IMG/VR virus record: IMGVR_UViG_2917403263_000005 | DNA: 25,925 bases | From: a virus | Lineage: Duplodnaviria; Heunggongvirae; Uroviricota; Caudoviricetes | Strand: one strand, 5' to 3' | Shown here: one piece after another, positions 3,165-17,758 of the stretch | How the letters are laid out: each line of letters opens with the position of its first letter | How positions within the stretch are numbered: the first letter of the stretch is position 1 | Notes under the pieces: generated by a model | Told to the model about the DNA's origin: nothing | The model's database searches: none | The model's input: the letters and a program-made list of their open reading frames with translations, nothing else | Translations under genes and position numbers: made by a program

Positions 3165-4268
3165 TCATTCCATTTCGAAATCATCAATCCTCACTTCAAG
3201 CTCCAGACTGGTCGTAAAACCGTTATCCGGGCTGACGGTATGCGTCAGAGTCGTAATGGTCCATTCCGCATCATCTATCGGCTGTTTAAAGCCACTGACC
3301 TTCACAGGCATTTCTGTGTAGAGATCTGCCCGCCCTTCCGCCAGTTGTAGCGAGAATAATGCAACGCCGCGTTGCAGGCGTTCCCACTGCATTTTCGCTG
3401 CCCGTTCGGCGTTGCTCCGGTTGGCATAAGTGCGATTAAGTACCAGCACGTTTTCATCCGTACCCACCAGGTAATCGCCCTGCTTCGCTTCTTCCGGCTC
3501 TTTCTTCTGCTTCTTAGTCCTGCGCTTACGCTTCACCGTGGTGCTTTCTTTCTTCGCGGGTTCGCGGGTATGCAACCAGCTGGCAATGACGCCCGTGTAA
3601 GCTCCGCGATCTGCCAGGGTAAAGCGGTGACTGTCGCCGTCCTTGCGTGTGATAGTGATCACCGGCAGTGGTTTACCAGTGGCGCTTTTGCCCTGCCCCT
3701 GCCGGATGAATAACAGATTGCCATTTTTCACCGACGCGATGGCACCGTACTGTCGCGCCAGCCGCATCAGAAAACTGCCGTCACTCTCATTAGTCTGGTC
3801 TATATGATCCACGGGTTTATCCGACAGGTCTTTACCCAGTGCCATCTTCAGTTTGTGACGCGCAGCTATTTCCTTCACCACTTCCCCGACCGTGGTCTTG
3901 TGCCACGATTTTTCACGGCGGGTATTCAGCGTTTCCCGAAAATCAGCACTTCGCGCCCGGATAGTCAGGCGGTCCGGGGCGCCAGTGTGTTCAATCTCGT
4001 CCACCGTGAATGCCCCTTTCGGGAAAAGCGGCTGCCCCTTCCAGCCCAGCGCCAGTGTAATGACCGCACCACGGCGCGGCAGCACGATTTTTCCGTCGGC
4101 GTCGTCCAGCTCCAGATCAAGCTGGTCCGCTTCAAAGCCCCTATTGTCCGTCAGCGTCAGACTCATCAGGCGATTATCCAGGACAGTAGTGATATCCCTG
4201 CCCTCAATACTGATGCTGAATGCGGGAGTTTTGTTACCCTTGTTAAGCAGTTCAGAGCTGAAATTCAC
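3165..4268 (-). CDS. D: tail protein D (late control gene D family)
   Basis: 367 aa. Segments AFSISIEGRDIT, LTLTDNRGFEADQLDLELDD, a basic KRKRRTKKQKK linker and C-terminal PVKVSGFK...WTITT match P2 gpD. GTG start overlaps the U stop (GTGA). Confidence 0.9.
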   Translation of the reverse strand: MNFSSELLNKGNKTPAFSISIEGRDITTVLDNRLMSLTLTDNRGFEADQLDLELDDADGKIVLPRRGAVITLALGWKGQPLFPKGAFTVDEIEHTGAPDRLTIRARSADFRETLNTRREKSWHKTTVGEVVKEIAARHKLKMALGKDLSDKPVDHIDQTNESDGSFLMRLARQYGAIASVKNGNLLFIRQGQGKSATGKPLPVITITRKDGDSHRFTLADRGAYTGVIASWLHTREPAKKESTTVKRKRRTKKQKKEPEEAKQGDYLVGTDENVLVLNRTYANRSNAERAAKMQWERLQRGVALFSLQLAEGRADLYTEMPVKVSGFKQPIDDAEWTITTLTHTVSPDNGFTTSLELEVRIDDFEME

Positions 4269-4750: not shown

Positions 4751-7700
4751 GCGTCGTATCCCCCCTGATCGCTGTAGTTACTCCTGGCTTTTGCCTTCAG
4801 CCTGCGTTCACGTTCATCAAGCTGGCGGGCCACCTCCCGCGCAATATCCTGCGCACTTTGTCCTGGCTGCGTCTGAATGATGATCTGCGTCGGTGCCTCA
4901 ATCCGTTGAACGGGCGGCACAGTGGCTGCACGACTCACCATCGCTTCGCCGCCTTTCGCGGGAAGTGCCAAAGGATGCAACGGTGGAAGCTCTGCAGGCG
5001 CGGCAGCAACGCCCATCATTCCGGCAACAACGGCAGCCAGTGCAGCTGTATTTCTCCGGCTGGTCACGTTTGCCGGGCCGTTAACAATTTCCGGCCCGTT
5101 TTCACCGACGATGCCAAACTGCCCGCGCGGGATATAGCCGCCGCTGTCATACATCCCCGCAAAGCCATATCCCCATGACGGAAAACCACCCGATGGCATC
5201 ATCACTTTACCGTCTGCATTCACCGTCGCAGGTTGCTGACGCGTCACGCTTTCCGGCAGTTTCGCCTTTGCAGCCTCTTTACTGACAATGCCGAGTTTAT
5301 CCAGCAACCAGGAAACGCCAGATTTCAGGGAGTCCAGCGGATGCATAACCATATTCAGCCCTTCCGCCAGTGCCTCCCCGAATCGTCGCCCCATTGCCGC
5401 TGCGCTCTGCAGTTCGGCAGAGGTCGACTTAACGGGCGTCAGCAGATCAGTAAACCAGCCCCACAGCGCCTGTACTTTGTCGCCAATCCACTGAAACACA
5501 GGCTTAAGTGGTTCAAATGCAGCACTGATGGGACCTGCCGCCGCTTTGAATCCCTCCACCACGCCATCGAGAAATGCGGTGATGGGTTGCCAGTATTTCC
5601 AGACAACCAGCGCCACGCCTGCCAGTGCAGTAACCACAAGACCTATCGGACTGAGCAGAGCACCTAACAGACCAGATATGGCATACAGGGCAACGCGCAG
5701 CATCGCCAGTGGACCAGATGCCAGTACTCGCAACACCGTGCCTGCGGCGGTCAGTCCACCGCGCAGTACCGCCAGAGGATTCATAAACATCACAGCAACA
5801 GCACGTAAACCGGATAATCCAGACCGCAAAAGTGCAACCGGCGCACCTGCTACAGTTTTCAGGACATTTCCCGTCAGTGATGCCGTGCGGCGCAAAGACG
5901 ACAACGGCGCAGTAAGTAAACCCGCAGCATTGCCCGATGAAGCAAGCCCGCGTCGCAGCAGTGCCAGTGGTGCGCCAGCCAGCCAGGACAACGCGTTGCT
6001 GGTTCGAGTTACTGCTGCCGTAACGGAAGGTAACGTTTTGATACCCAGCACAGAGAATCCCAGACGGATCACTGCCAGCGGCCCCAGCACTGCAGCCAAC
6101 ACTACAGCCAGGGTGCCGAGGCCCACGGTAACAGCAGCCACAACCGCTGCTACTTTCATCAGTGTGCCCGTCAGTTCCGGGTTAGCTTCCACCCAGCGAC
6201 GCAGCGCCCCCGTGACGCTTTTTACCGTGTACAGAATATCCATCAGCGGCTGGCGCAGCGTTTCGCCCAGGCTGCTGAAGGTGTTCTGCGCTCCGGTTTT
6301 GACCAGCAACCACTGAGCAGAAAGTGAATCCTTGTTGATGTCGGATTCTTTCTGCATGGAACCGAGCGCATCATTGCCCGCTGTCAGTTTTAGCTGGCGC
6401 TGCAGTTCCGGCAGGTTGTTTGCCAGTTTCGCCGCGTCATCGCCAAACTCTTTACCAAACAACATGGTCATGGCAGACAGTCGCTTATCCTGCGGCAGTG
6501 CATTCACCTTCTCCAGCACACGCTGGATAGTTCCCATCGCATCCTTCGTCATCTGCTTTTCAATCACTTCAGGATTAAGTTTCAGCAGATTCATTCCTTC
6601 GAAGAAACTCTTACTTTGCATGGTGGCAATGGACAATTCACGCACCATCGCGTTTGCTGCACTGGCTGCAACCTCCGGCGCAGCGCCCAGTGTCAGGAAG
6701 GTGGAACCCAGCGCCGCCGCTTTACGATAATCCAGACGGTCAGCCACACCGCCCAGACGTTGCATAACATCGATGATGTCCGCCCCTTTCGACATGGCGT
6801 TATCATCCAGATAGTTCAGCGCATCGCCGAGCTGTTCAATATTGCGGGTAGGGATTTTGTAGAGCTGGGCGATTTTCCCCAGACTTTCTGACAGTTCATC
6901 CGCTGGCAGCTCAAAGGCTGTTGCCGCCTTTGCCGCCGTACTGGCGAAGGCCAGCAGGTCACGTTTCTGGTCTTCCCAGCTGTCGTCAGGGTTTGCGACG
7001 TTCATGCGCGCCCCACCTTCAACCAGTGCAGCGAAATCCACCGCACCGTTTTCCATCGGCAACTGTTCGCTGGCAGCCTTGATGGCATCCTGCATTTCGT
7101 AAAAACGCGCAGTGCGGTTGCCATTATCGTCACGCAGACCATTGACCTGCTTTGCCACACCTTTCATGGCATCTTCCATGCTGGTATAGCTTTTTACTGC
7201 CGCCATCACTGGTGCGCCCATTGCCAGCCCTGCCGCCGTGGTGGTGGCTCCGGCTCCTGCAATACGATCGCGCACCTCCAGCGAACGGGCATAACTGGCA
7301 CGCGCCGCATTCATCCTGCGCTGAGCTTCCCCCAGTCGCTTCAGCCGCGCCTCCTGTTTCGACAATTCCTGGTTATAACGTGATGTTTCACGGGCTAAAC
7401 GGGCAGTTGCTCCCGCATCATCTTTCGCAGAAATTCCCGCCCGGTACAGTTCTGCACGCACAAGCGCCGTTTGCTTCTGCAAATATTTTTGTTGTTCTTC
7501 CAGGCGTTGGACTGCCAGCGTTTGCCGACCTAAAGCCACAAGGTGCCGTTGTGATGGTTGTTCCATCGCCTCCAGCTCAGAGCTAAGCAAATTAGCCTTC
7601 TGTCTGGCATAGTTCAGCCTGTCGCCTAACTTCTTGTTATCGGCCTGCAGCTTGCGAAATTTTTCCAGGCTGTTACCCGCCTGATTGAGTTGCTTTAATG

Positions 7701-8832: not shown

Positions 8833-10005
8833 TTACGCGCTGACCTGGCTGGCGAAATTCACCAGGTACTGATCGGTGATGCGCTGACGCAGCATCAGGT
8901 TTTCAAGTGGCGGCACTGGCGTGTAGTCGTAGTCGATGGTGAGCTTCCCGGCTTTCAGAGTGTCTTTATCGTTCACCGACTCGTCCAGCCAGCAATCACC
9001 ACCAATGAGATAGCCCTGACTGACCAGGCTGCGCATTTTGGCGCGGATACCTTCGATAATGTCGCGGGCCAGCGACGGGTTCAGCGGTTTGTCCACCGCC
9101 CACATATGCGCTTCTGCCATCGTGTCCATCAGTACCTGCGCCGTGCGGGTGTAGTTTTCGAAGGCAAAGAGCGGGTCATCACTCAGGCTGCGGGAACCCC
9201 AGAAGCGGAAACCGTCTTTGCGGATAAGCGTGGTGACGTCGTTCTGGTTCAGCAGACCTGCATCTGTTGCCGGGTCCTGCAGATCCCAGAACACATCAGC
9301 AGAAATTCCGGTGACACCGTTCACGCCCACGTTGGACAGGCTTTTGTGCCATCCGGTCTGCTCGTCAATTTTGGCGCGCAGGCCAAGCGCACGTGCGGTG
9401 GCGTATGCCGTTGCTTCGGCATTCAGCACCGTGTCCCAGCTGATAAAATCCGGCCAGATCAGCATCCCTTCACGCTGGCTGAAGTTTTCGCGGTAGGTAA
9501 GCACTTCTTCCACTGTTTTGCAGCCATACGCCGACAGGTAAGCAAACCCGCGCAGGCTTTGCGCCACACTCAGCAGCTCAGTCGCAACGGCTTTGTTATC
9601 GTGACCTGGCACGCCGAGAATGCGCGGTTTAACGCCGAGCTGTGACTGGGCAGATAACAGGGCTTTCATGCCTGTTTTTTTACCCTCGGCGGTCACTGCG
9701 CCGATGATATTGGTTGTGGTTTCTTCTTCCGTTTCACCCTGCGGCACACGCACAACAACGGTCACGGGTTTTGCCTGATCAGCGATGGCATCCAGCGAAC
9801 GGGCCAGCGTGCCGGACTCACCCGCTTTACCGCTGGCGGTCAGTACATCAGTTATCAGCACGGGTTTATTAAGAGGAAACATTTTTGCATCGGCATCATC
9901 GCCCGTGCAGACCATACCCACGATGGCGGTGCTCACCGTGGTAATGGATCGGGTGCCTTCGTTGACTTCAACAACGCGCACTCCGTGGTGGTAATCCTGA
10001 GCCAT
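8833..10005 (-). CDS. FI: tail sheath protein FI
   Basis: 390 aa, [19 protein letters not shown]...; strong AGGAGG Shine-Dalgarno 8 nt upstream of ATG 10005; matches P2 contractile sheath protein. Confidence 0.9.
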
Positions 10006-10199
10006 AGTGGCGAACCTCCTGATTGGATTAGGCTTCGCCCTATGTTGAAGTGATTGTGCCTGACAAACAGCTAAGCGCAGTTGTACCGTTATTCATACAA
10101 AATGAGGGGAAGGCTTCAGAAGCTCACTCCACACTGGCGCTTATAGAGCTGTGTCTGATCATATGTTGATACAAGTACATAACGAATAAGCATGGTTAA

Positions 10200-10222
10200 G
10201 CTCCCAGACCAGAACTGGGAGC
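10200..10222 (-). terminator. hairpin downstream of the acyltransferase cargo gene
   Basis: 8-bp inverted repeat GCTCCCAG / CTGGGAGC with 7-nt loop, 15 nt after the acyltransferase stop. No clean U-tract follows, so weak. Confidence 0.3.
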
Positions 10223-10236
10223 ATGCCATTCACTTG

Positions 10237-11421
10237 TTATTTCTGTATTCTCACTGCCATTCTTTTTTGCACATCAAAAAATTTATTAATCACTCCATTG
10301 CGATTAATAAATGGATATTCTATACCTTTAAAAGTCATATAAGCGATAGTCACAACAATTGGCGACAACATCAGAATTAAATATGCGTATGAATTATCAC
10401 TCAAATTTCGCACATACGCCTTCCCGAGTAAAACATCTAAAGTAAAATATAGAACAATCCCGTGCATTAGATAGATACTATATGATATCTCACCAAAGAC
10501 TCTGGAGATTTTCAACTTTAACACACCAAATAGATCACATCCATTTACGATCAAAATAAATATAGCGCCGATCAATAAAATTGGCAGGTAATCAAACGAG
10601 TGAGGGAAGTAAAACAACGAAAAAACGAAACCTGAAACACACAAAAACGATGTCAATTTCAAAGATGCAACTTTTAAGATTAATTTATTACCTCGTACTG
10701 CTGAAGCTAAAAAGCCACAGGCGAATGGCAGCAAAAAGATGTAATTTAAGTTGAGGTAATTAAACGCATATAAGCTAAATGCAGGGATAACTAGCACAAA
10801 GATATTTTTGGTTCTTCTCAAAGCAAATGCAATGAGCGGTAGAGAAAAATAGAATAACCACTCATACACAAGCGTCCAATAAATACCAGCATATATATAA
10901 CCAGTATCACTAAATCCATTTATATGTGAATTACCATAAGTTGCATATATCATCCATGAAAGAATGGATTCAATTAGTTCACCTGCACTTACATTGAGTT
11001 TCCAGCCTGTTTTATATCCTATGATAAATAATGCAATTAAAAGCGAGAACATATACAGAGGATATATTCTAAAAATTCTTGATTTGTACAACGAGAACCA
11101 ATTTATTTTTTTTGAATCAATTATTTTAGAAAAAAACAAATACCCCGTTATCATAAAGAAAATCATAACGGGTAATTGCCCTGCATTCGCAAATACATGA
11201 CTTGAAGGTAAAGACCATTCATTTGTTTTTATAAAGTGATGCCATATATAAGAGTGATGCAGAAACACTAAGAAGGCCAAATACCCTCTTAATCCATCAA
11301 TATTAACGTTCCTACCTTTACCTTCAATTGGTAGCGGGCTTATTTTATCAAGAAAATACAATATGGCGATAGCTGCAAATATAGCAGCTACTATTAACAT
11401 AGGGCTATTATAAATTAACAT
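10237..11421 (-). CDS. acyltransferase-3 family integral membrane protein (putative O-antigen/LPS O-acyltransferase)
   Basis: 394-aa ORF, ATG at 11421 with AAGG 9 nt upstream. Polytopic hydrophobic protein with the N-terminal AT3 signature NIDGLRGYLAFLVFLHH (DGLRG...H). Two sampled 60-nt lines gave about 32% and 40% G+C, against about 52% in a sampled line of the flanking sheath gene. Confidence 0.8.
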   Translation of the reverse strand: MLIYNSPMLIVAAIFAAIAILYFLDKISPLPIEGKGRNVNIDGLRGYLAFLVFLHHSYIWHHFIKTNEWSLPSSHVFANAGQLPVMIFFMITGYLFFSKIIDSKKINWFSLYKSRIFRIYPLYMFSLLIALFIIGYKTGWKLNVSAGELIESILSWMIYATYGNSHINGFSDTGYIYAGIYWTLVYEWLFYFSLPLIAFALRRTKNIFVLVIPAFSLYAFNYLNLNYIFLLPFACGFLASAVRGNKLILKVASLKLTSFLCVSGFVFSLFYFPHSFDYLPILLIGAIFILIVNGCDLFGVLKLKISRVFGEISYSIYLMHGIVLYFTLDVLLGKAYVRNLSDNSYAYLILMLSPIVVTIAYMTFKGIEYPFINRNGVINKFFDVQKRMAVRIQK

Positions 11422-11640
11422 GTAATTAACCTTAGGATTTTTCAGAAATTTTCACAGCAATATTTTTATATTGTACGCTCACAAATATATCTTTCACAAT
11501 ATAAATGGTCATTACCATCATCAAAAACTGTCCCAGGATTACAGTTCTCCTGAACTCAACCAGGGCGAGAGTATCTCTATCATGTTGATTTGCAACGTGC
11601 CAGTAGCCTGTTTTATCGTGTTTCCAAAATGAGCTGGTTA

Positions 11641-11678
11641 AAAACTGGCAGGCATGAAAATCTACCTGCCAGTTTTTT
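11641..11678. terminator. bidirectional terminator-like hairpin after tail-fibre assembly gene
   Basis: AAAA-CTGGCAGG (11645-11652), 12-nt loop, CCTGCCAG (11665-11672), TTTTTT (11673-11678). Immediately 3' of the tail-fibre assembly stop (11677-11679). Confidence 0.45.
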
Positions 11679-12066
11679 ACAATGCAGGTTTATCAGGCCA
11701 TTCAATGTCCGGAGCAGTAGATGTATCGACAGCTTTCACGTCTTTGACATACTGCATCCACATAATCAACTTTGCTTTATTTTCATCACTAATGGTTCCC
11801 AGAAATAAATCAGTCCGCCAGTCTGCTGTTACGGCATTAGCATCTGCAAGCCGTGATTGTCTTTCCTGTTCAGCATTGTTAACCAGCTCTTCATATGTTT
11901 TTACGGGGGCTGGCGGAGCAATAAATTCACCATCAGCGAAAAGCCAGCCAATGCGCACTCCATCAGCAAGTGGGAACACTTGAAAACCATCCGTAGCCCA
12001 TTCACTCTCCCCATCCCATACCGCAATGTTGACAACAACACCATCTCTCACCATTGCATAATTCAT
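11677..12066 (-). CDS. G: tail fibre assembly chaperone (Tfa / gpG-like)
   Basis: C-terminal block LGTISDENKAKLIMWMQYVKDVKAVDTSTAPDIEWPDKP matches the conserved Tfa C-terminus. Start placed at ATG 12066 (GGAG 9 nt upstream, TAATG overlap with the upstream stop) rather than the ORF-track start at 12081. Confidence 0.8.
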   Translation of the reverse strand: MNYAMVRDGVVVNIAVWDGESEWATDGFQVFPLADGVRIGWLFADGEFIAPPAPVKTYEELVNNAEQERQSRLADANAVTADWRTDLFLGTISDENKAKLIMWMQYVKDVKAVDTSTAPDIEWPDKPAL

Positions 12067-12386
12067 TATGCGTACTCCCATACAATTACAATGCCTGCCA
12101 TCCCTGCACCTCCAGCACGTTGCTGTGTCGCGCCGCCGTAAACACAGGCACCGCCACCACCGCCACCTGGTCCATTAGCATTAATTCCTTCTCCGGCAAT
12201 GGCCTGTGAACCCGCGCCCTCACCCAGAACAGAACTGCCACCAGGTCCTCCCATTGCCAGCAATCCTGAATAGCGAACACCTGGCATGGTATAGCCACTG
12301 CCACTGCCAAAAATATTCGCCCCCGTGAATCCAGGTGTGTATGCACCAGCAGGCCCTACAACGGCTACATTATTACCCTCTGTCAT
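12066..12386 (-). CDS. glycine-rich tail-fibre C-terminal segment, out of frame with H (likely 3' part of a split tail-fibre gene)
   Basis: 106-aa ORF whose ATG overlaps the H stop (TAATG). Composition (GPGGGGGGACVYGG...) continues the Gly-rich character of the last 80 residues of H. The -1 frame is open across the G10 tract, so one extra G or two fewer would fuse it to H. Confidence 0.6.
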   Translation of the reverse strand: MTEGNNVAVVGPAGAYTPGFTGANIFGSGSGYTMPGVRYSGLLAMGGPGGSSVLGEGAGSQAIAGEGINANGPGGGGGGACVYGGATQQRAGGAGMAGIVIVWEYA

Positions 12387-13771
12387 TACAGCTCCACCCC
12401 CCCCCCTTTTGCGGTAACAACGTCACCAAATGCTGAACTTCCCCCTGTCGCCCCCGGCATTGCACTGGCTCCCGTTCCTCCGTACCCAACGGTAACCGTT
12501 GTTACTACCGGATGGTCTATGCGGGCTTTAACGTATTCTCCCGACATTCCCCCTCCGCCGCAGGCAGCATTGCCCCCTGTACCGACCTGGCATCCGCCGC
12601 CAGCGCCACCACCGCCAACCACTTCAACAATCGCAAACTTTATACCTGCAGTTGGCGTATATGTCCCGGAGGCTTTGAACACCTGACATTTCACCAGTCG
12701 GCCTGTTCCGTCGCCAAGCCCAAGGTATGTGAGAAGACCAGCTACATCCTTTCCACTCAAATTAGTCAGCGTATTATCCAGCGGTTGTTTTCCCGCCAGT
12801 GCATTAAGCATTGTCGTGGCAAAGTTCGGGTCATTCCCCAGCGCCGCCGCCAGTTCGTTCAGCGTATCCAGTGCCGCAGGTGCAGAACCCACTATTGCTG
12901 CAATCGCCGATTTCACAAAAGCCGTGGTGGCAATCTGTGTATTGTTGACCGACTGTGCCGCAGTCGGTGCTGTTGGCGTTCCGGTGAATGCCGGACTCGA
13001 CAGCGGCGCTTTCAGTGCTAACGCATTGTTAATGGTGGTGCTGAATTTCGGATCATTGTTAATGGCTGCGGCTATTTCTTTCAGCGTGTCCAGCGTGGCT
13101 GGCGCACCATTAATAAGAGCCGTCAGTGCCGCCTGAACAAACGCAGTGGTCGCAACCTGCGTGGTATTATTCCCCGCCGCTGGCGTTGGCGCTTTGGGTG
13201 TTCCGGTAAACGTCGGACTTTCTTTGGGTGCATACTGTGAATGCGGGTCCAGTGCGGCAAGATGTTTTGCCATCTGATCATCCGCGTACACCTTCAGCTC
13301 CAGTACCTTATCATCCACATACTTGCGAGTCGCCAGTACTACAGCAGGGTCGATTGTCAGGGTGATATTGTCCGTACTACTGGTAATCAGCACCATACGC
13401 ACGGTCTGGGTACGCCCGCTGCCTTCAGCCAGTTGCGGCTTATAGCTTTCCGGGCAGTTGCCCACGGCAATCAATGCCCCGGATTCATCAAACAGGCCCA
13501 CTTCACGTATCCACCAACCGCCCTCGTTTTCAGGGATCACCTGTTCAGCAATAATCTGGCTGCTGTTCTGCGGGTCGATATAGAGCATATTCAGCGCAGC
13601 CCGGCGTTTCTCATTTACCAGTGCAGTCTGCTTTGCGTCCGGCGTTGGCAATGTCCCGCCGCCATCGCCGACCGCCATATGGGTAATTTTTAAAGGCACA
13701 CCGAGCGCGGCGGCGCTGGCAAGTTTCGCCGCGCCAATATCCGTCAGCAGGGTATAAAATTTTGTGCTCAT
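12386..13771 (-). CDS. H: tail fibre protein H (N-terminal baseplate-binding part plus repeats; apparently truncated at a G10 tract)
   Basis: 461 aa. N-terminus MSTKFYTLLTDIGAAKLASAAALG is P2 gpH-like. Two tandem ~70-aa repeats (SPTFTGTPKAPT...NALALKA and SPAFTGTPTAPT...NALAGKQ) followed by a Gly-rich C-terminus. ATGA overlap with the I stop. Confidence 0.85.
   Translation of the reverse strand: MSTKFYTLLTDIGAAKLASAAALGVPLKITHMAVGDGGGTLPTPDAKQTALVNEKRRAALNMLYIDPQNSSQIIAEQVIPENEGGWWIREVGLFDESGALIAVGNCPESYKPQLAEGSGRTQTVRMVLITSSTDNITLTIDPAVVLATRKYVDDKVLELKVYADDQMAKHLAALDPHSQYAPKESPTFTGTPKAPTPAAGNNTTQVATTAFVQAALTALINGAPATLDTLKEIAAAINNDPKFSTTINNALALKAPLSSPAFTGTPTAPTAAQSVNNTQIATTAFVKSAIAAIVGSAPAALDTLNELAAALGNDPNFATTMLNALAGKQPLDNTLTNLSGKDVAGLLTYLGLGDGTGRLVKCQVFKASGTYTPTAGIKFAIVEVVGGGGAGGGCQVGTGGNAACGGGGMSGEYVKARIDHPVVTTVTVGYGGTGASAMPGATGGSSAFGDVVTAKGGGVEL
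12397..12406 (-). repeat. homopolymeric G10 tract (C10 on plus strand) at the 3' end of tail-fibre gene H
   Basis: Counted directly: plus strand ccaCCCCCCCCCCtttt. On the coding strand it reads GCA AAA GGG GGG GGG GTG GAG CTG TAA. Confidence 0.9.
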
Positions 13772-16195: not shown

Positions 16196-16251
16196 AGCTA
16201 TAGATTGCCATGAATGATGTATCTAAGAACAAGGTGAGCTTAGTCTGGTCC

Positions 16252-16279
16252 ATGACACAATTAAGAATTACTATATAAA
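16252..16279 (+). promoter_or_regulatory. candidate sigma70 promoter for the V-S cargo gene
   Basis: ATGACA (16252-16257), 16-bp spacer, TATAAA (16274-16279), about 30 nt upstream of ATG 16310. Hexamers read by eye in an AT-rich region, so this is weak. Confidence 0.3.
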
Positions 16280-16309
16280 AATTGTTAACTACTTGGTTGA
16301 GAAACAAAC

Positions 16310-17137
16310 ATGAAAAATAAGAACCAGTATCAGGCTTTACTTAGAGGGAAGGTCGAATCGGCGATTGCTCAAGCCAAAAGTGCTGCAGGATTTTCCCACC
16401 AGGGTGTTAAGGGAGCTGTTCTAGAAATATTATTAAGTCAACTATTTCGACCTCTTTTGCCCGCAGATGTTGGCATTGGCACAGGGCAAATCATTGAACA
16501 GTATTCAGGAAAGTTATCACCTCAAATAGATATTATTATTTACAATAAATCAATACTCCCTCCGATATTAATCGATGGTGCCACAGGGTTATTCCCAATA
16601 GAATCAGTTCTATATACCATTGAGGTAAAAACCACATTAAGCTCATCGGAACTCAGCTCTGCACACTCAAGTGCAAAAGAACTTAATGAGAAATTCGGTT
16701 ACTTACCTGGAATAAAAGATGAATCAGGCAAACTAATCCAACACAAAATAGAGAAACTTCGCTCGGTAATATTCGCTCTAAGTAGCGACTTATCACCAAA
16801 TGGAATTACTGAAGCCGAAAGGTATAAAAAAATATACAAAGAAGACTTTCGTTACGTTACAGCAATTTGCGTTGCAGGTCGTGAGTATAGTTATGAAGAT
16901 CGAGATTGCTGGGTAACAATGCGTAATACTCAAGCGTATGATGAAATCCTTGCATTTATTGGAGGCATAACCAATACATATAAAGGTGTTTCAGAAAGTC
17001 GTGGGACACCATTGCTAGGATATTACATTGTTCCAGAGAATGTCGAACTGAGCCTTACAGCTTGTACCACACTCCCGGAATTGCAAGTTAAGTGCACGCA
17101 ATGCGCTGAAACTAAAAAAAATAATCCCCACCTTTGA
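16310..17137 (+). CDS. uncharacterised PD-(D/E)xK-like nuclease-fold protein with C-terminal CxxC (cargo gene, frame as called)
   Basis: 275-aa ORF on the strand opposite all flanking late genes. Restriction-endonuclease-like motif pattern E39 ... D74 (PQIDIIIY) ... E105-x-K107 (YTIEVKTT). C262-x-x-C265 near the C-terminus. AT-rich: two sampled lines gave about 27% and 38% G+C. I cannot assign it to a named family. Confidence 0.6.
   Translation: MKNKNQYQALLRGKVESAIAQAKSAAGFSHQGVKGAVLEILLSQLFRPLLPADVGIGTGQIIEQYSGKLSPQIDIIIYNKSILPPILIDGATGLFPIESVLYTIEVKTTLSSSELSSAHSSAKELNEKFGYLPGIKDESGKLIQHKIEKLRSVIFALSSDLSPNGITEAERYKKIYKEDFRYVTAICVAGREYSYEDRDCWVTMRNTQAYDEILAFIGGITNTYKGVSESRGTPLLGYYIVPENVELSLTACTTLPELQVKCTQCAETKKNNPHL
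17114..17121 (+). repeat. A8 homopolymer at the point where the cargo ORF changes frame
   Basis: Counted directly: actAAAAAAAAtaat (17114-17121). In frame it reads ACT AAA AAA AAT AAT CCC CAC CTT TGA. Confidence 0.9.
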
Positions 17138-17297
17138 CAACGATGATGAACTAATACTAAAAAACTACACTATTACTGATAACAAGCCTTGTAAATGTGG
17201 TGGGGAATTTAAATCAGAAAAAGGTAATTTCACCATTAAAAATGGTCGACTGAGAGAAATAGAGTACAACGAGCCAGCTCGAATTTACAAAGAGTAA
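17136..17297 (+). other. out-of-frame coding continuation of the cargo gene (+1 frame, no start codon) carrying the second half of a zinc ribbon
   Basis: Open frame ...DNDDELILKNYTITDNKPCKCGGEFKSEKGNFTIKNGRLREIEYNEPARIYKE ending at TAA 17295-17297, 15 nt before the S stop. It has no ATG/GTG/TTG start of its own. Its CKC pairs with the upstream CTQC to give CxxC-x33-CxC. Confidence 0.55.
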
Positions 17298-17311
17298 ATA
17301 TAACGAAGGAA

Positions 17312-17758
17312 TTAAGGCCTTAGCCATTTATAAACGACAGATGCAATTTCATCTTTGTCAGATGAAGTAAAACCTAGTAACAGCCGCTCCGCATAACGTA
17401 CCTCTGGCCCCCGGCGGCTTACACGATCGAGCAGACCGTAATGGTGAACACGGGCAATACGCTGCACCTTGCCTTCAAACTGTACGCTGGCAGAGTCGGC
17501 GCTGGCGGCAGTTTTCAGGTATTTTGTGGTGCGCAGCTTTGCAAACATCTGACGTTTGATGCGCCCCTTTTTACTGCGTGCTGTTACCCGTCGCGGTTCA
17601 TAGCTGCTGCCGTCAGGGTTGCGCTGCATCCTGATATTCTGCTGCTGTGTCCGGCGCAGTTCCTGCGCCAGCTGACGCATCATGCGAATTCTTGCGGCTG
17701 GCTCCAGATTCGCCAGCAAGGCACTCAGCCAGTCGTCCACTTTCTGCAGTTCAGCCAC
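17312..17758 (-). CDS. S: tail completion protein S
   Basis: 148 aa, GTG start; (M)AELQKVDDWLSALLANLEPAARIRMMR resembles the P2 gpS N-terminus; overlaps the R stop. Confidence 0.85.
   Translation of the reverse strand: MAELQKVDDWLSALLANLEPAARIRMMRQLAQELRRTQQQNIRMQRNPDGSSYEPRRVTARSKKGRIKRQMFAKLRTTKYLKTAASADSASVQFEGKVQRIARVHHYGLLDRVSRRGPEVRYAERLLLGFTSSDKDEIASVVYKWLRP

Follow-up and report, generated by a model that had tools for sequence, protein, structure and literature searches.

The stretch of DNA analysed here (the window; 25,925 nucleotides) comes from a P2-like prophage integrated beside ybjL, and it carries an acyltransferase-3 (AT3) gene on the minus strand (10237..11421) between the tail-fibre assembly gene G and the sheath gene FI. 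The upstream G-like gene (11677..12066, minus strand; 129 aa as annotated in identical RefSeq copies, the longest ORF being 11677..12081) matches Caudo_TAP with an E-value of 4.4e-25, and the downstream FI gene (8833..10005, minus strand) has Phage_sheath domains. These flanking genes, together with the P2 record, in which fun(Z) lies directly upstream of FI, bear out the original prediction that the AT3 gene occupies the Z/fun position. The accompanying claim that this slot carries variable cargo in the P2 family also holds, the G/FI slot of P2-like phages being a documented cargo hotspot (PMC3573123; bioRxiv 10.1101/2024.10.15.618418). It is occupied by a DNA invertase in three sampled relatives and in phage Cartapus, and by neaT, an unrelated AT3 gene, in the sister prophage of CFT073. 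The invertase of the sampled relatives comes with an alternative fibre tip. A second cargo slot of the same prophage holds a NucC-like nuclease.

The AT3 gene lies in a foreign, AT-rich cassette of approximately 1.5 kb, spanning about 10109-11640, which is compositionally distinct and missing from near-identical prophages. The G+C content is 32.2% in the AT3 ORF and 33.8% in the block 10109-11640, against about 55-57% in the phage backbone and 52.7% in the whole window. The expected AT-richness is thus confirmed, whereas FI, at 56.9%, is somewhat richer than the anticipated value of about 52%. The cargo had been placed at 10006-11676, but its first 103 nt (10006..10108, minus strand) are a conserved part of the backbone ahead of FI, with 97-99% identity across 829 E. 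coli genomes, and homology to other Peduoviridae and to more than 800 E. coli genomes ends at 10108. Beyond this boundary, a 3' non-coding tail of the foreign block (10109..10199, minus strand) is unmatched in other E. coli prophages, and the interval 10109-10236 has a G+C content of 46%. A copy of the cassette in Citrobacter (L004) is 76% identical, with homology spanning 10259-11614. In a repeat search, the block proved to have neither direct nor inverted repeats at its ends, such as would mark a transposon-like element.

Just past the cargo boundary, the backbone segment contains a TGT-N12-ACA dyad (10082-10099, minus strand), a candidate Ogr/activator site of the late F promoter. The dyad lies 77-94 nt before the FI ATG, compared with 69-97 nt for the pF activator site in the P2 record, and occupies the same aligned position in CFT073; the pattern alone occurs near chance frequency, with 9 instances in the window against approximately 6 expected.

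Two hairpins had been proposed as inverted repeats bracketing the cargo, at 11641-11678 and 10200-10222. Both exist, but they are independent stem-loops rather than arms of one repeat, and neither accompanies the cassette in the Citrobacter copy. The first is an intrinsic terminator (11640..11678, minus strand) with an A-run, a 15-bp stem and a T-run, situated directly after the stop codon of gene G. Its folding energy is -25.7 kcal/mol (z -6.2), and none of 200 shuffled sequences folds as well; Rfam returned only sub-threshold chance matches to miRNA hairpins on it. This terminator is expected to shield the cargo from late transcription of V-W-J-I-H-G, and since it lacks homology to the Citrobacter cassette, it belongs to this junction and not to the cassette. 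The second is a stem-loop (10200..10222, minus strand) with an 8-bp GC-rich stem and no U-tract, located 14 nt past the AT3 stop codon, with a dG of -19.3 and a z of -3.1 (1 of 200 shuffles as good). It was not picked up in the terminator scan and could act as a weak terminator or 3' stabiliser at most. Its inclusion in the cassette was considered and rejected, as the Citrobacter copy is followed by no equivalent.

A consensus scan located a candidate sigma-70-type promoter for the AT3 gene, TTGTGA-N18-TACAAT (11470..11499, minus strand), although promoter-type matches as such are not above chance in this AT-rich DNA, where 12 occur and 7.7 +/- 2.3 are expected. Both hexamers recur unchanged in the Citrobacter cassette, whose overall identity is 76%, while the spacer is substituted. 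A Shine-Dalgarno-like TAAGG (11430..11434, minus strand), 8 nt ahead of the ATG, is likewise kept there. The 5' region 11422-11700 contains no GATC and hence no Dam/OxyR-type phase-variation signature as seen upstream of gtr and oafB. With an upstream terminator and a candidate promoter, the gene may form a transcription unit of its own, of the moron type, although the downstream hairpin is unconserved and without a U-tract.

The product was expected to be a 394-aa acyltransferase-3 membrane protein with the family signature, and this is well supported. The suggested Pfam search matches PF01757 (Acyl_transf_3) over residues 39-360 with an E-value of 3.4e-27. The score of 95.8 bits lies above the cut-off of 31, the alignment takes in positions 2-323 of the 326 in the profile, and the PHROG match reads 'O-acetyltransferase'. 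The signature motif NIDGLRGYLAFLVFLHH occupies residues 40-56 and holds R45 and H56, forming R-X10-H, while the RXXR motif corresponds to R115-I-F-R118; R45, H56 and both RXXR arginines are invariant across 120 homologues. These two motifs are the defining and essential elements of AT3 proteins, providing an essential arginine and the catalytic histidine (PMC9833829), and here they fall in the first core helix and in core helix 3, respectively. The AF2 model, with a pLDDT of 95.5 and a pTM of 0.92, predicts an extra N-terminal helix followed by a ten-helix core with the transmembrane acyltransferase (TmAT) fold. The protein ends after the membrane domain, with no SGNH or other extra domain. 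By profile, motifs and modelled fold, the predicted protein is therefore an AT3-only membrane O-acyltransferase. RefSeq already labels the gene generically as an 'acyltransferase family protein'. An NCBIfam search gave no named family, with no match to WecH, OpgC or other named-enzyme models. PDB sequence searches with the single protein and with a 120-sequence profile found no relative, a BFVD search returned a single AT3-like viral match, and the accessions of the protein are absent from all searchable papers.

The closest characterised homologue is OacB of phage Sf101, with 38.9% identity over 95%; OacB is itself 72% identical to OacC of Shigella flexneri (PMC4206707), and identity to the pair lies at 38-39%. 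In a neighbour-joining tree, the protein falls with OacB and OacC in an 8-member clade (86 of 100 bootstraps), on a separate sub-branch with two further homologues, P0002 and P0003 (100%). Clade members of known context lie in temperate phages, several of them adjoining a tailspike or tail fibre gene. The residues critical in OacB are R47, H58, W71, F98, R116, R119 and S146 (PMC8952252), and all seven are present here as R45, H56, W69, F96, R115, R118 and S145. Like OacB and OacC, the protein is AT3-only, falls in the range of about 380-395 aa, has an extra N-terminal helix and is borne by a temperate phage; oacB adjoins a receptor-binding tailspike gene. OacB of phage Sf101 and OacC of an SfII-like prophage 3/4-O-acetylate rhamnose III of the S. 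flexneri O-antigen, the acceptor being Rha III in an alpha-L-Rha-(1->2)-alpha-L-Rha fragment. Their carriers are P22-like or SfII-like, whereas the present carrier is P2-like, and the known lysogen has an O7-family O-antigen cluster with rfbBDAC rhamnose genes rather than an S. flexneri type. Almost the same closeness (33-38% identity) is reached by hundreds of proteins from environmental Pseudomonas and Burkholderia, so acceptor specificity cannot be transferred from OacB and OacC.

The concept of a temperate-phage AT3 moron that acetylates O-antigen also applies to two AT3-only serotype converters, Oac/OacA of phage Sf6 and the O157 acetylase of phiV10, both of which prevent re-adsorption and superinfection (PMC9558356). 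When 50,697 phage genomes were searched by tblastn at E <= 1e-5, similarity to neither came up, and the only matches were Sf101, a Tunturiibacter phage and ESSI2_ev239. The Salmonella OafA, OafB and GtrC-type O-antigen acetylases share the AT3 domain, R-X10-H, RXXR and the TmAT fold with this protein, but are AT3-SGNH enzymes, while the present protein lacks SGNH.

The G/FI slot has close precedents for cargo of this kind. NeaT of E. coli CFT073 prophage phi-b0847 (Wiles et al. 2013, PMC3573123) is also a PF01757 protein encoded at the same moron position between G and FI. The two prophages belong to one lineage, with backbones 92-96% identical, and both are integrated at ybjL; CFT073 and a near-identical copy of the present prophage (L002) have the same protein accessions for tail tube, GpE and Ogr. 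Both genes have low, unameliorated G+C (29.8% for neaT, 32.2% here), and both are rare, with neaT in 9 and the present gene in 2 of 5426 genomes; none of the nine neaT genomes carries this gene. The proteins, however, are only 23% identical over 137 residues (E 0.001), which points to independent acquisition of a different AT3 subfamily; the candidate identification of the gene as neaT itself was rejected on the same value. NeaT is also shorter (343 against 394 aa), its gene is transcribed opposite to the tail genes, whereas the present gene runs in their direction, and the DNA upstream of FI also differs in CFT073. The only AT3 protein of this slot to have been studied, NeaT has been linked to bacteraemia fitness and surface behaviour, namely aggregation and macrophage/phagocyte association, and not to phage exclusion (PMC3573123). 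The classical lysogenic-conversion gene fun(Z) of P2 lies at this position too, immediately ahead of the pF activator site and FI, and is likewise non-essential cargo of a P2-like phage. By its annotation, it differs in being encoded on the opposite strand, in size (about 528 aa from its coordinates) and in its annotated function, T5 exclusion and FUdR sensitivity.

The cassette is rare, occurring in 2 of 5426 complete E. coli genomes, against 829 for the adjacent backbone, and a scan of one genome per species found no close relative. Its hosts comprise E. coli, E. ruysiae, Escherichia sp. E3659 and S. sonnei. The stretch 11560-12400 is found only in the same two E. coli genomes, and the same 129-aa G-like gene precedes the AT3 gene in 7 of 8 retrieved contigs, which are all those that include the upstream side. 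The G-like gene is thus a rare allele that is always found together with this AT3 gene. The full-length ORF is identical or 98-99% identical in many independent assemblies, and it is intact in a prophage copy (L021) that, by gene calls, appears to have lost the tail tube to tape-measure genes. The dN/dS ratio is 0.19 against the 99% copies and 0.13 against the 76%-identical Citrobacter copy, indicating at the sequence level that the gene is under purifying selection.

Taken together, the membrane enzyme most likely acetylates a cell-surface sugar. The reading we favour, at somewhat better than even confidence, is that the cassette in the G/FI hotspot encodes a self-transcribed O-acyltransferase of the OacB/OacC clade, most probably modifying the O-antigen and thereby effecting lysogenic conversion. 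As regards promoter activity, acyl donor, acceptor and phenotype, we infer the following course. The strong terminator after gene G would halt late-operon transcription, and the AT3 gene would be read from its own sigma-70-type promoter, making it expressible in the lysogen. The 11-helix protein would insert into the inner membrane with its N-terminus out and its C-terminus in, and acetyl-CoA may be bound from the cytoplasm through R45 and R115/R118. Catalytic His56, near the periplasmic face, would then move the acetyl group to an envelope-glycan hydroxyl. The acceptor would most probably be the O-antigen repeat, altering serotype and recognition by phages and antibodies. An O-antigen target is favoured by the kinship with OacB and OacC, by the temperate-phage setting of the clade, and by the rhamnose genes in the O7 cluster of one lysogen. 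O-antigen acetylation and superinfection exclusion are accordingly plausible outcomes, although the spread of the cassette over several species makes one common O-antigen unlikely.

That same spread would favour a conserved acceptor, which is what the most serious rival proposes: an active AT3 acyltransferase acting on another envelope glycan, such as LPS core, enterobacterial common antigen, periplasmic glucans, peptidoglycan, colanic acid or capsule, whose main role, as with NeaT, would be in host fitness or surface behaviour rather than in serotype or phage exclusion. A variety of acceptors is known for AT3-only proteins (PMC9558356), NeaT in the same slot of a sister prophage affects aggregation and the association with macrophages and is required during bacteraemia, and the apparent retention of the gene in the degraded prophage L021 is as expected for a host-beneficial trait. 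With so low an identity, however, the NeaT phenotypes cannot be carried over to this protein; within its own clade, the enzymes that have been characterised, OacB and OacC, act on O-antigen, and no NCBIfam model for WecH, OpgC or another named enzyme matches. We consider this alternative possible but distinctly less probable than O-antigen modification.

A more elaborate proposal, which we regard as doubtful, is that the rare fibre tip, its chaperone and the AT3 enzyme form one co-inherited 'recognise, then erase' module, in which the enzyme would acetylate precisely the glycan receptor read by the linked fibre and which would have taken over from the invertase-based host-range switch of sister prophages. 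If so, specificity and self-exclusion would move together, and the independent captures of this gene and neaT would reflect selection placing receptor-modifying beside receptor-binding genes.

Very improbable, in our estimate, is an anti-phage defence gene that, comparably to the P2 hotspot cargo old, tin and fun, would block superinfection without modifying a glycan receptor. P2-like hotspots are rich in defence systems (PMC9122126; PMC13586616), P2 fun(Z) in the same slot blocks T5, and the second cargo slot of this prophage holds the NucC-like nuclease, yet the acyltransferase matches no defence system in PADLOC, it is a complete AT3 enzyme with no additional domain, and no role of AT3 proteins is known beyond the acylation of extracytoplasmic acceptors (PMC9558356). 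Equally hard to credit is that the gene is a passenger without function, left to decay after horizontal transfer, for despite its extreme rarity, its unameliorated composition and some truncated database copies (most of them partial contigs), the dN/dS values, the intact catalytic and critical residues, the near-identical full-length ORFs in many assemblies and the promoter hexamers kept at 76% overall identity all speak against decay.

The AT3 gene is real but an ordinary kind of prophage cargo, and a different AT3 enzyme is already known at the same site in E. coli CFT073. Current understanding stands. If active, the gene would alter a surface glycan of the lysogen, with possible consequences for serotyping, for vaccine or antibody recognition, for susceptibility to therapeutic or competing phages and, if neaT is a guide, for how the bacterium behaves in the host. 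It represents a second, independent AT3 capture in the G/FI slot of prophages of the phi-b0847 lineage, which makes this slot a natural system for asking why receptor-modifying enzymes settle near receptor-binding genes.

The 394-aa reading frame that the original prediction had recognised as an acyltransferase-3 (AT3) gene was borne out, extending over 10237..11421 on the minus strand, with the motif NIDGLRGYLAFLVFLHH occupying residues 40-56. The protein matches Pfam PF01757 (Acyl_transf_3) across residues 39-360 (E 3.4e-27) and PHROG 3333 'O-acetyltransferase' (E 1.4e-53). It carries R-X10-H (R45...H56) and RXXR (R115, R118), both invariant in 120 homologues; these motifs define the AT3 family and are essential in OafB (PMC9833829). 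Seven residues are critical by mutagenesis in OacB (PMC8952252), an O-antigen acetylase of Shigella flexneri phage Sf101, and all seven are conserved here. The AlphaFold2 model, built on a 120-sequence alignment, is very confident (pLDDT 95.5, pTM 0.92), displaying an extra N-terminal helix, a multi-helix core and a basic C-terminal helix, with no SGNH or other added domain in the protein. Its enzymatic identity as an AT3 acyltransferase is near certain. The protein is uncharacterised, bearing the RefSeq name 'acyltransferase family protein', and a literature search found no papers citing its accessions.

A P2-like prophage (Peduoviridae), inserted next to ybjL, makes up the window together with host DNA at its left end (grxA-ybjM-ybjL, 1 to ~2850), after which come ogr, D, U, T, E, FII and FI. 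The ogr gene, at the right end of the prophage, abuts ybjL, which is also the attachment region of the E. coli CFT073 prophage phi-b0847. On the downstream side of the AT3 frame lies FI, the tail sheath gene (8833..10005, minus strand, Phage_sheath domains), and on the upstream side G, the tail-fibre assembly gene (11677..12066/12081, minus strand, Caudo_TAP). G+C content is 32.2% in the AT3 frame and 33.8% in the foreign block at 10109-11640, against 56.9% in FI and 52.7% in the entire window. Backbone homology through FI, shared with Peduoviridae (Cartapus, Klebsiella phages) and 829 of 5426 complete E. coli genomes, ends at 10108, which is 103 nt ahead of the FI start codon. The conserved 103-nt block contains a TGT-N12-ACA dyad (10082-10099, 77-94 nt before the FI ATG), which aligns with the equivalent CFT073 dyad; in the P2 record the pF activator site is annotated 69-97 nt before FI. 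The dyad is a candidate F-promoter control site, on a positional argument only, because the pattern occurs near chance frequency. By the homology stop and the dyad position, the foreign block therefore fits exactly into the interval from the G terminator to the F-promoter control region.

The hairpins proposed to bracket the gene are both real, forming independent stem-loops; a repeat search found no terminal repeats delimiting the foreign block. The upstream hairpin (11678-11640) starts at the G stop codon and has a 15-bp stem between an A-run and a T-run, with a dG of -25.7 kcal/mol (z -6.2) that none of 200 shuffles equalled; on this position and fold it is a classical intrinsic terminator of the late fibre operon. 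The hairpin on the downstream side (10222-10200) has an 8-bp GC-rich stem without a U-tract (dG -19.3, z -3.1). Between the terminator and the frame lies a sigma-70-like promoter candidate (11499-11470, TTGTGA-N18-TACAAT). A 76%-identical cassette occurs in a Citrobacter-type P2-like phage (L004), in a cluster that includes a C. freundii protein, and it matches the window only over 10259-11614, the frame plus ~190 nt of upstream DNA, including neither hairpin. The promoter hexamers and the TAAGG ribosome-binding site are identical in that cassette while adjacent bases vary, which provides moderate evidence that the gene may travel with its own promoter. No GATC cluster was found upstream of the gene, which thus lacks a gtr/oafB-like phase-variation signature. 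In L004, an inverted, fragmentary tail-fibre assembly gene (3260-3591, 73-80% nucleotide identity to the window G) lies downstream of the AT3 copy, and the ~1.2 kb upstream of the cassette shows no convincing ORF; the locus resembles the remains of an invertible fibre segment that received the cassette.

The names 'moron position 2' and Z/fun hotspot have been used for the G/FI site (PMC3573123; bioRxiv 10.1101/2024.10.15.618418), where fun(Z) immediately precedes the pF site and FI in the P2 record. A Gin-like recombinase, usually accompanied by an inverted alternative fibre tip and chaperone, fills the slot in Cartapus and in three E. coli prophages that were sampled and share the block upstream of FI. 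In phi-b0847, which shares the ybjL integration site and 92-96% backbone identity, the slot holds neaT, a PF01757 acyltransferase gene (343 aa, 29.8% G+C; 9 of 5426 E. coli genomes) that is transcribed against the direction of the tail genes. Over 137 residues, NeaT is only 23% identical to the window protein, so that two unrelated AT3 genes have been captured independently in the same slot of one prophage lineage. NeaT alters aggregation and macrophage association and is required in bacteraemia; transcription of neaT occurred in broth culture, and virulence was restored by a clone carrying the gene with its native upstream region (PMC3573123). A NeaT-like fitness role, with another envelope glycan as acceptor, is the strongest alternative to O-antigen modification, though clearly the less likely of the two.

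An exact match to the protein exists in Escherichia sp. E3659 (WP_135486431.1), and E. coli, E. ruysiae and S. sonnei have variants that are 98-99% identical, one of those in E. coli being labelled O7:H10. The protein is present in 2 of 5426 complete E. coli genomes and two IMG/VR contigs, and in none of a one-per-species genome set. Among 50,697 phage genomes, the only full-length match is OacB of Sf101 (38.9% identity over 95% of the query). A 382-aa Shigella/E. coli protein (P0153) is 72% identical to OacB, the value reported for OacC (PMC4206707). A neighbour-joining tree was built from 61 members of the subfamily and an outgroup; in it the window protein, the Citrobacter copy (76%) and P0003 (49%) form a trio with 100% support (40 replicates). 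With P0007, Kosakonia P0004, OacB and OacC they form an 8-member clade (86 of 100 bootstraps), separate from a mostly environmental remainder, such as Pseudomonas and Burkholderia. Judging from gene contexts, this clade is largely temperate-phage cargo, several members adjoining receptor-binding genes. OacB adjoins the Sf101 tailspike and integrase, P0007 a P22-type tailspike, and P0003 PglD-like and MaoC-like sugar-modification genes, while P0004 lies in a prophage region and the Citrobacter copy follows a tail-fibre assembly gene. A third, distant AT3 gene (27% identity) occurs in Escherichia phage ESSI2_ev239 (Peduoviridae; 4914-6017), adjoining the integrase and not in the G/FI slot.

The region variable against Cartapus and CFT073, from 10109 (or 10007) to 12719, comprises the C-terminal part of the fibre gene H, G and the acyltransferase. 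The H-tip and G allele (11560-12400) is limited in E. coli to the same two AT3-carrying genomes, and the same 129-aa G gene precedes AT3 in 7 of 8 retrieved contigs, all that include the upstream side. Since G+C is 45-56% in H and G vs 32% in AT3, the two differ in origin and are now co-inherited. A co-transferred recognise-and-erase module of fibre tip, chaperone and acyltransferase, which would also be why AT3 genes repeatedly settle in the slot, is a rather improbable reading that draws on this linkage and the two independent captures only. Within H (12066..13771), the window has a G10 run at ~12396-12405 (minus strand) against GGGGGGTTGGG in three other copies; the resulting frameshift divides a 568-aa fibre into ORFs of 461 and 106 aa. 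The split recurs in four independent assemblies with an identical acyltransferase allele and is therefore a real allele, not a one-off error: the fibre is broken or, possibly, the tract is prone to slippage; two others have an intact fibre. In a Logan contig (L021, SRR14012069; 4417-6575), gene calls run from a truncated sheath (350 aa) directly to a shortened D-like gene (278 aa), then ogr and ybjL. Tail tube to tape-measure genes appear deleted and acyltransferase, fibre and chaperone are all intact, consistent with cargo retention in a decaying prophage.

A second AT-rich insert (16212-17384, 1.17 kb, 37% G+C) separates baseplate gene V from virion-morphogenesis gene S, is absent from two sister prophages and occurs in 3 of 5426 E. 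coli genomes. Its ORF (16310..17137) runs on the plus strand, against the direction of the late genes, and its 275-aa DUF6602 product matches PADLOC PD-(D/E)xK (E 4.5e-32) as well as models of the NucC nuclease (E 6e-14). No cyclase was found near this gene, and the lone NucC-like nuclease is a candidate anti-phage cargo. For the acyltransferase itself, a non-receptor defence function is very improbable. Its dN/dS (0.19 vs 99% copies, 0.13 vs the 76% copy) shows purifying selection, and a dead passenger gene is equally remote.

Phage-borne AT3 morons are already well known, including Oac, OacB, OacC, OacD, the phiV10 acetylase and, at this same site, NeaT. In the favoured mechanism, late transcription would end at the terminator after G, and the cassette promoter would drive expression in the lysogen. 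The protein would insert with its N-terminus out and C-terminus in, following the positive-inside rule (K35/R37 loop and basic C-terminal tail inside), consistent with the predicted OacB topology (PMC8952252). Acetyl-CoA would be bound from the cytoplasm by R45, R115 and R118, with the acetyl group passed at His56 to an envelope-glycan hydroxyl on the periplasmic side, as in the general AT3/TmAT mechanism (PMC9833829, PMC12423673). The lysogen 2018-05-5CC carries an O7-family O-antigen cluster with rfbBDAC, vioAB and manBC, so that at least one host offers a rhamnose-containing O-antigen, a circumstantial point. The entire scheme, from terminator to O-antigen acceptor, is judged probable by a modest degree, the O-antigen as acceptor on its own having about an even chance. 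The acceptor would most probably be the O-antigen repeat, resulting in lysogenic conversion, with superinfection exclusion as a plausible putative consequence.
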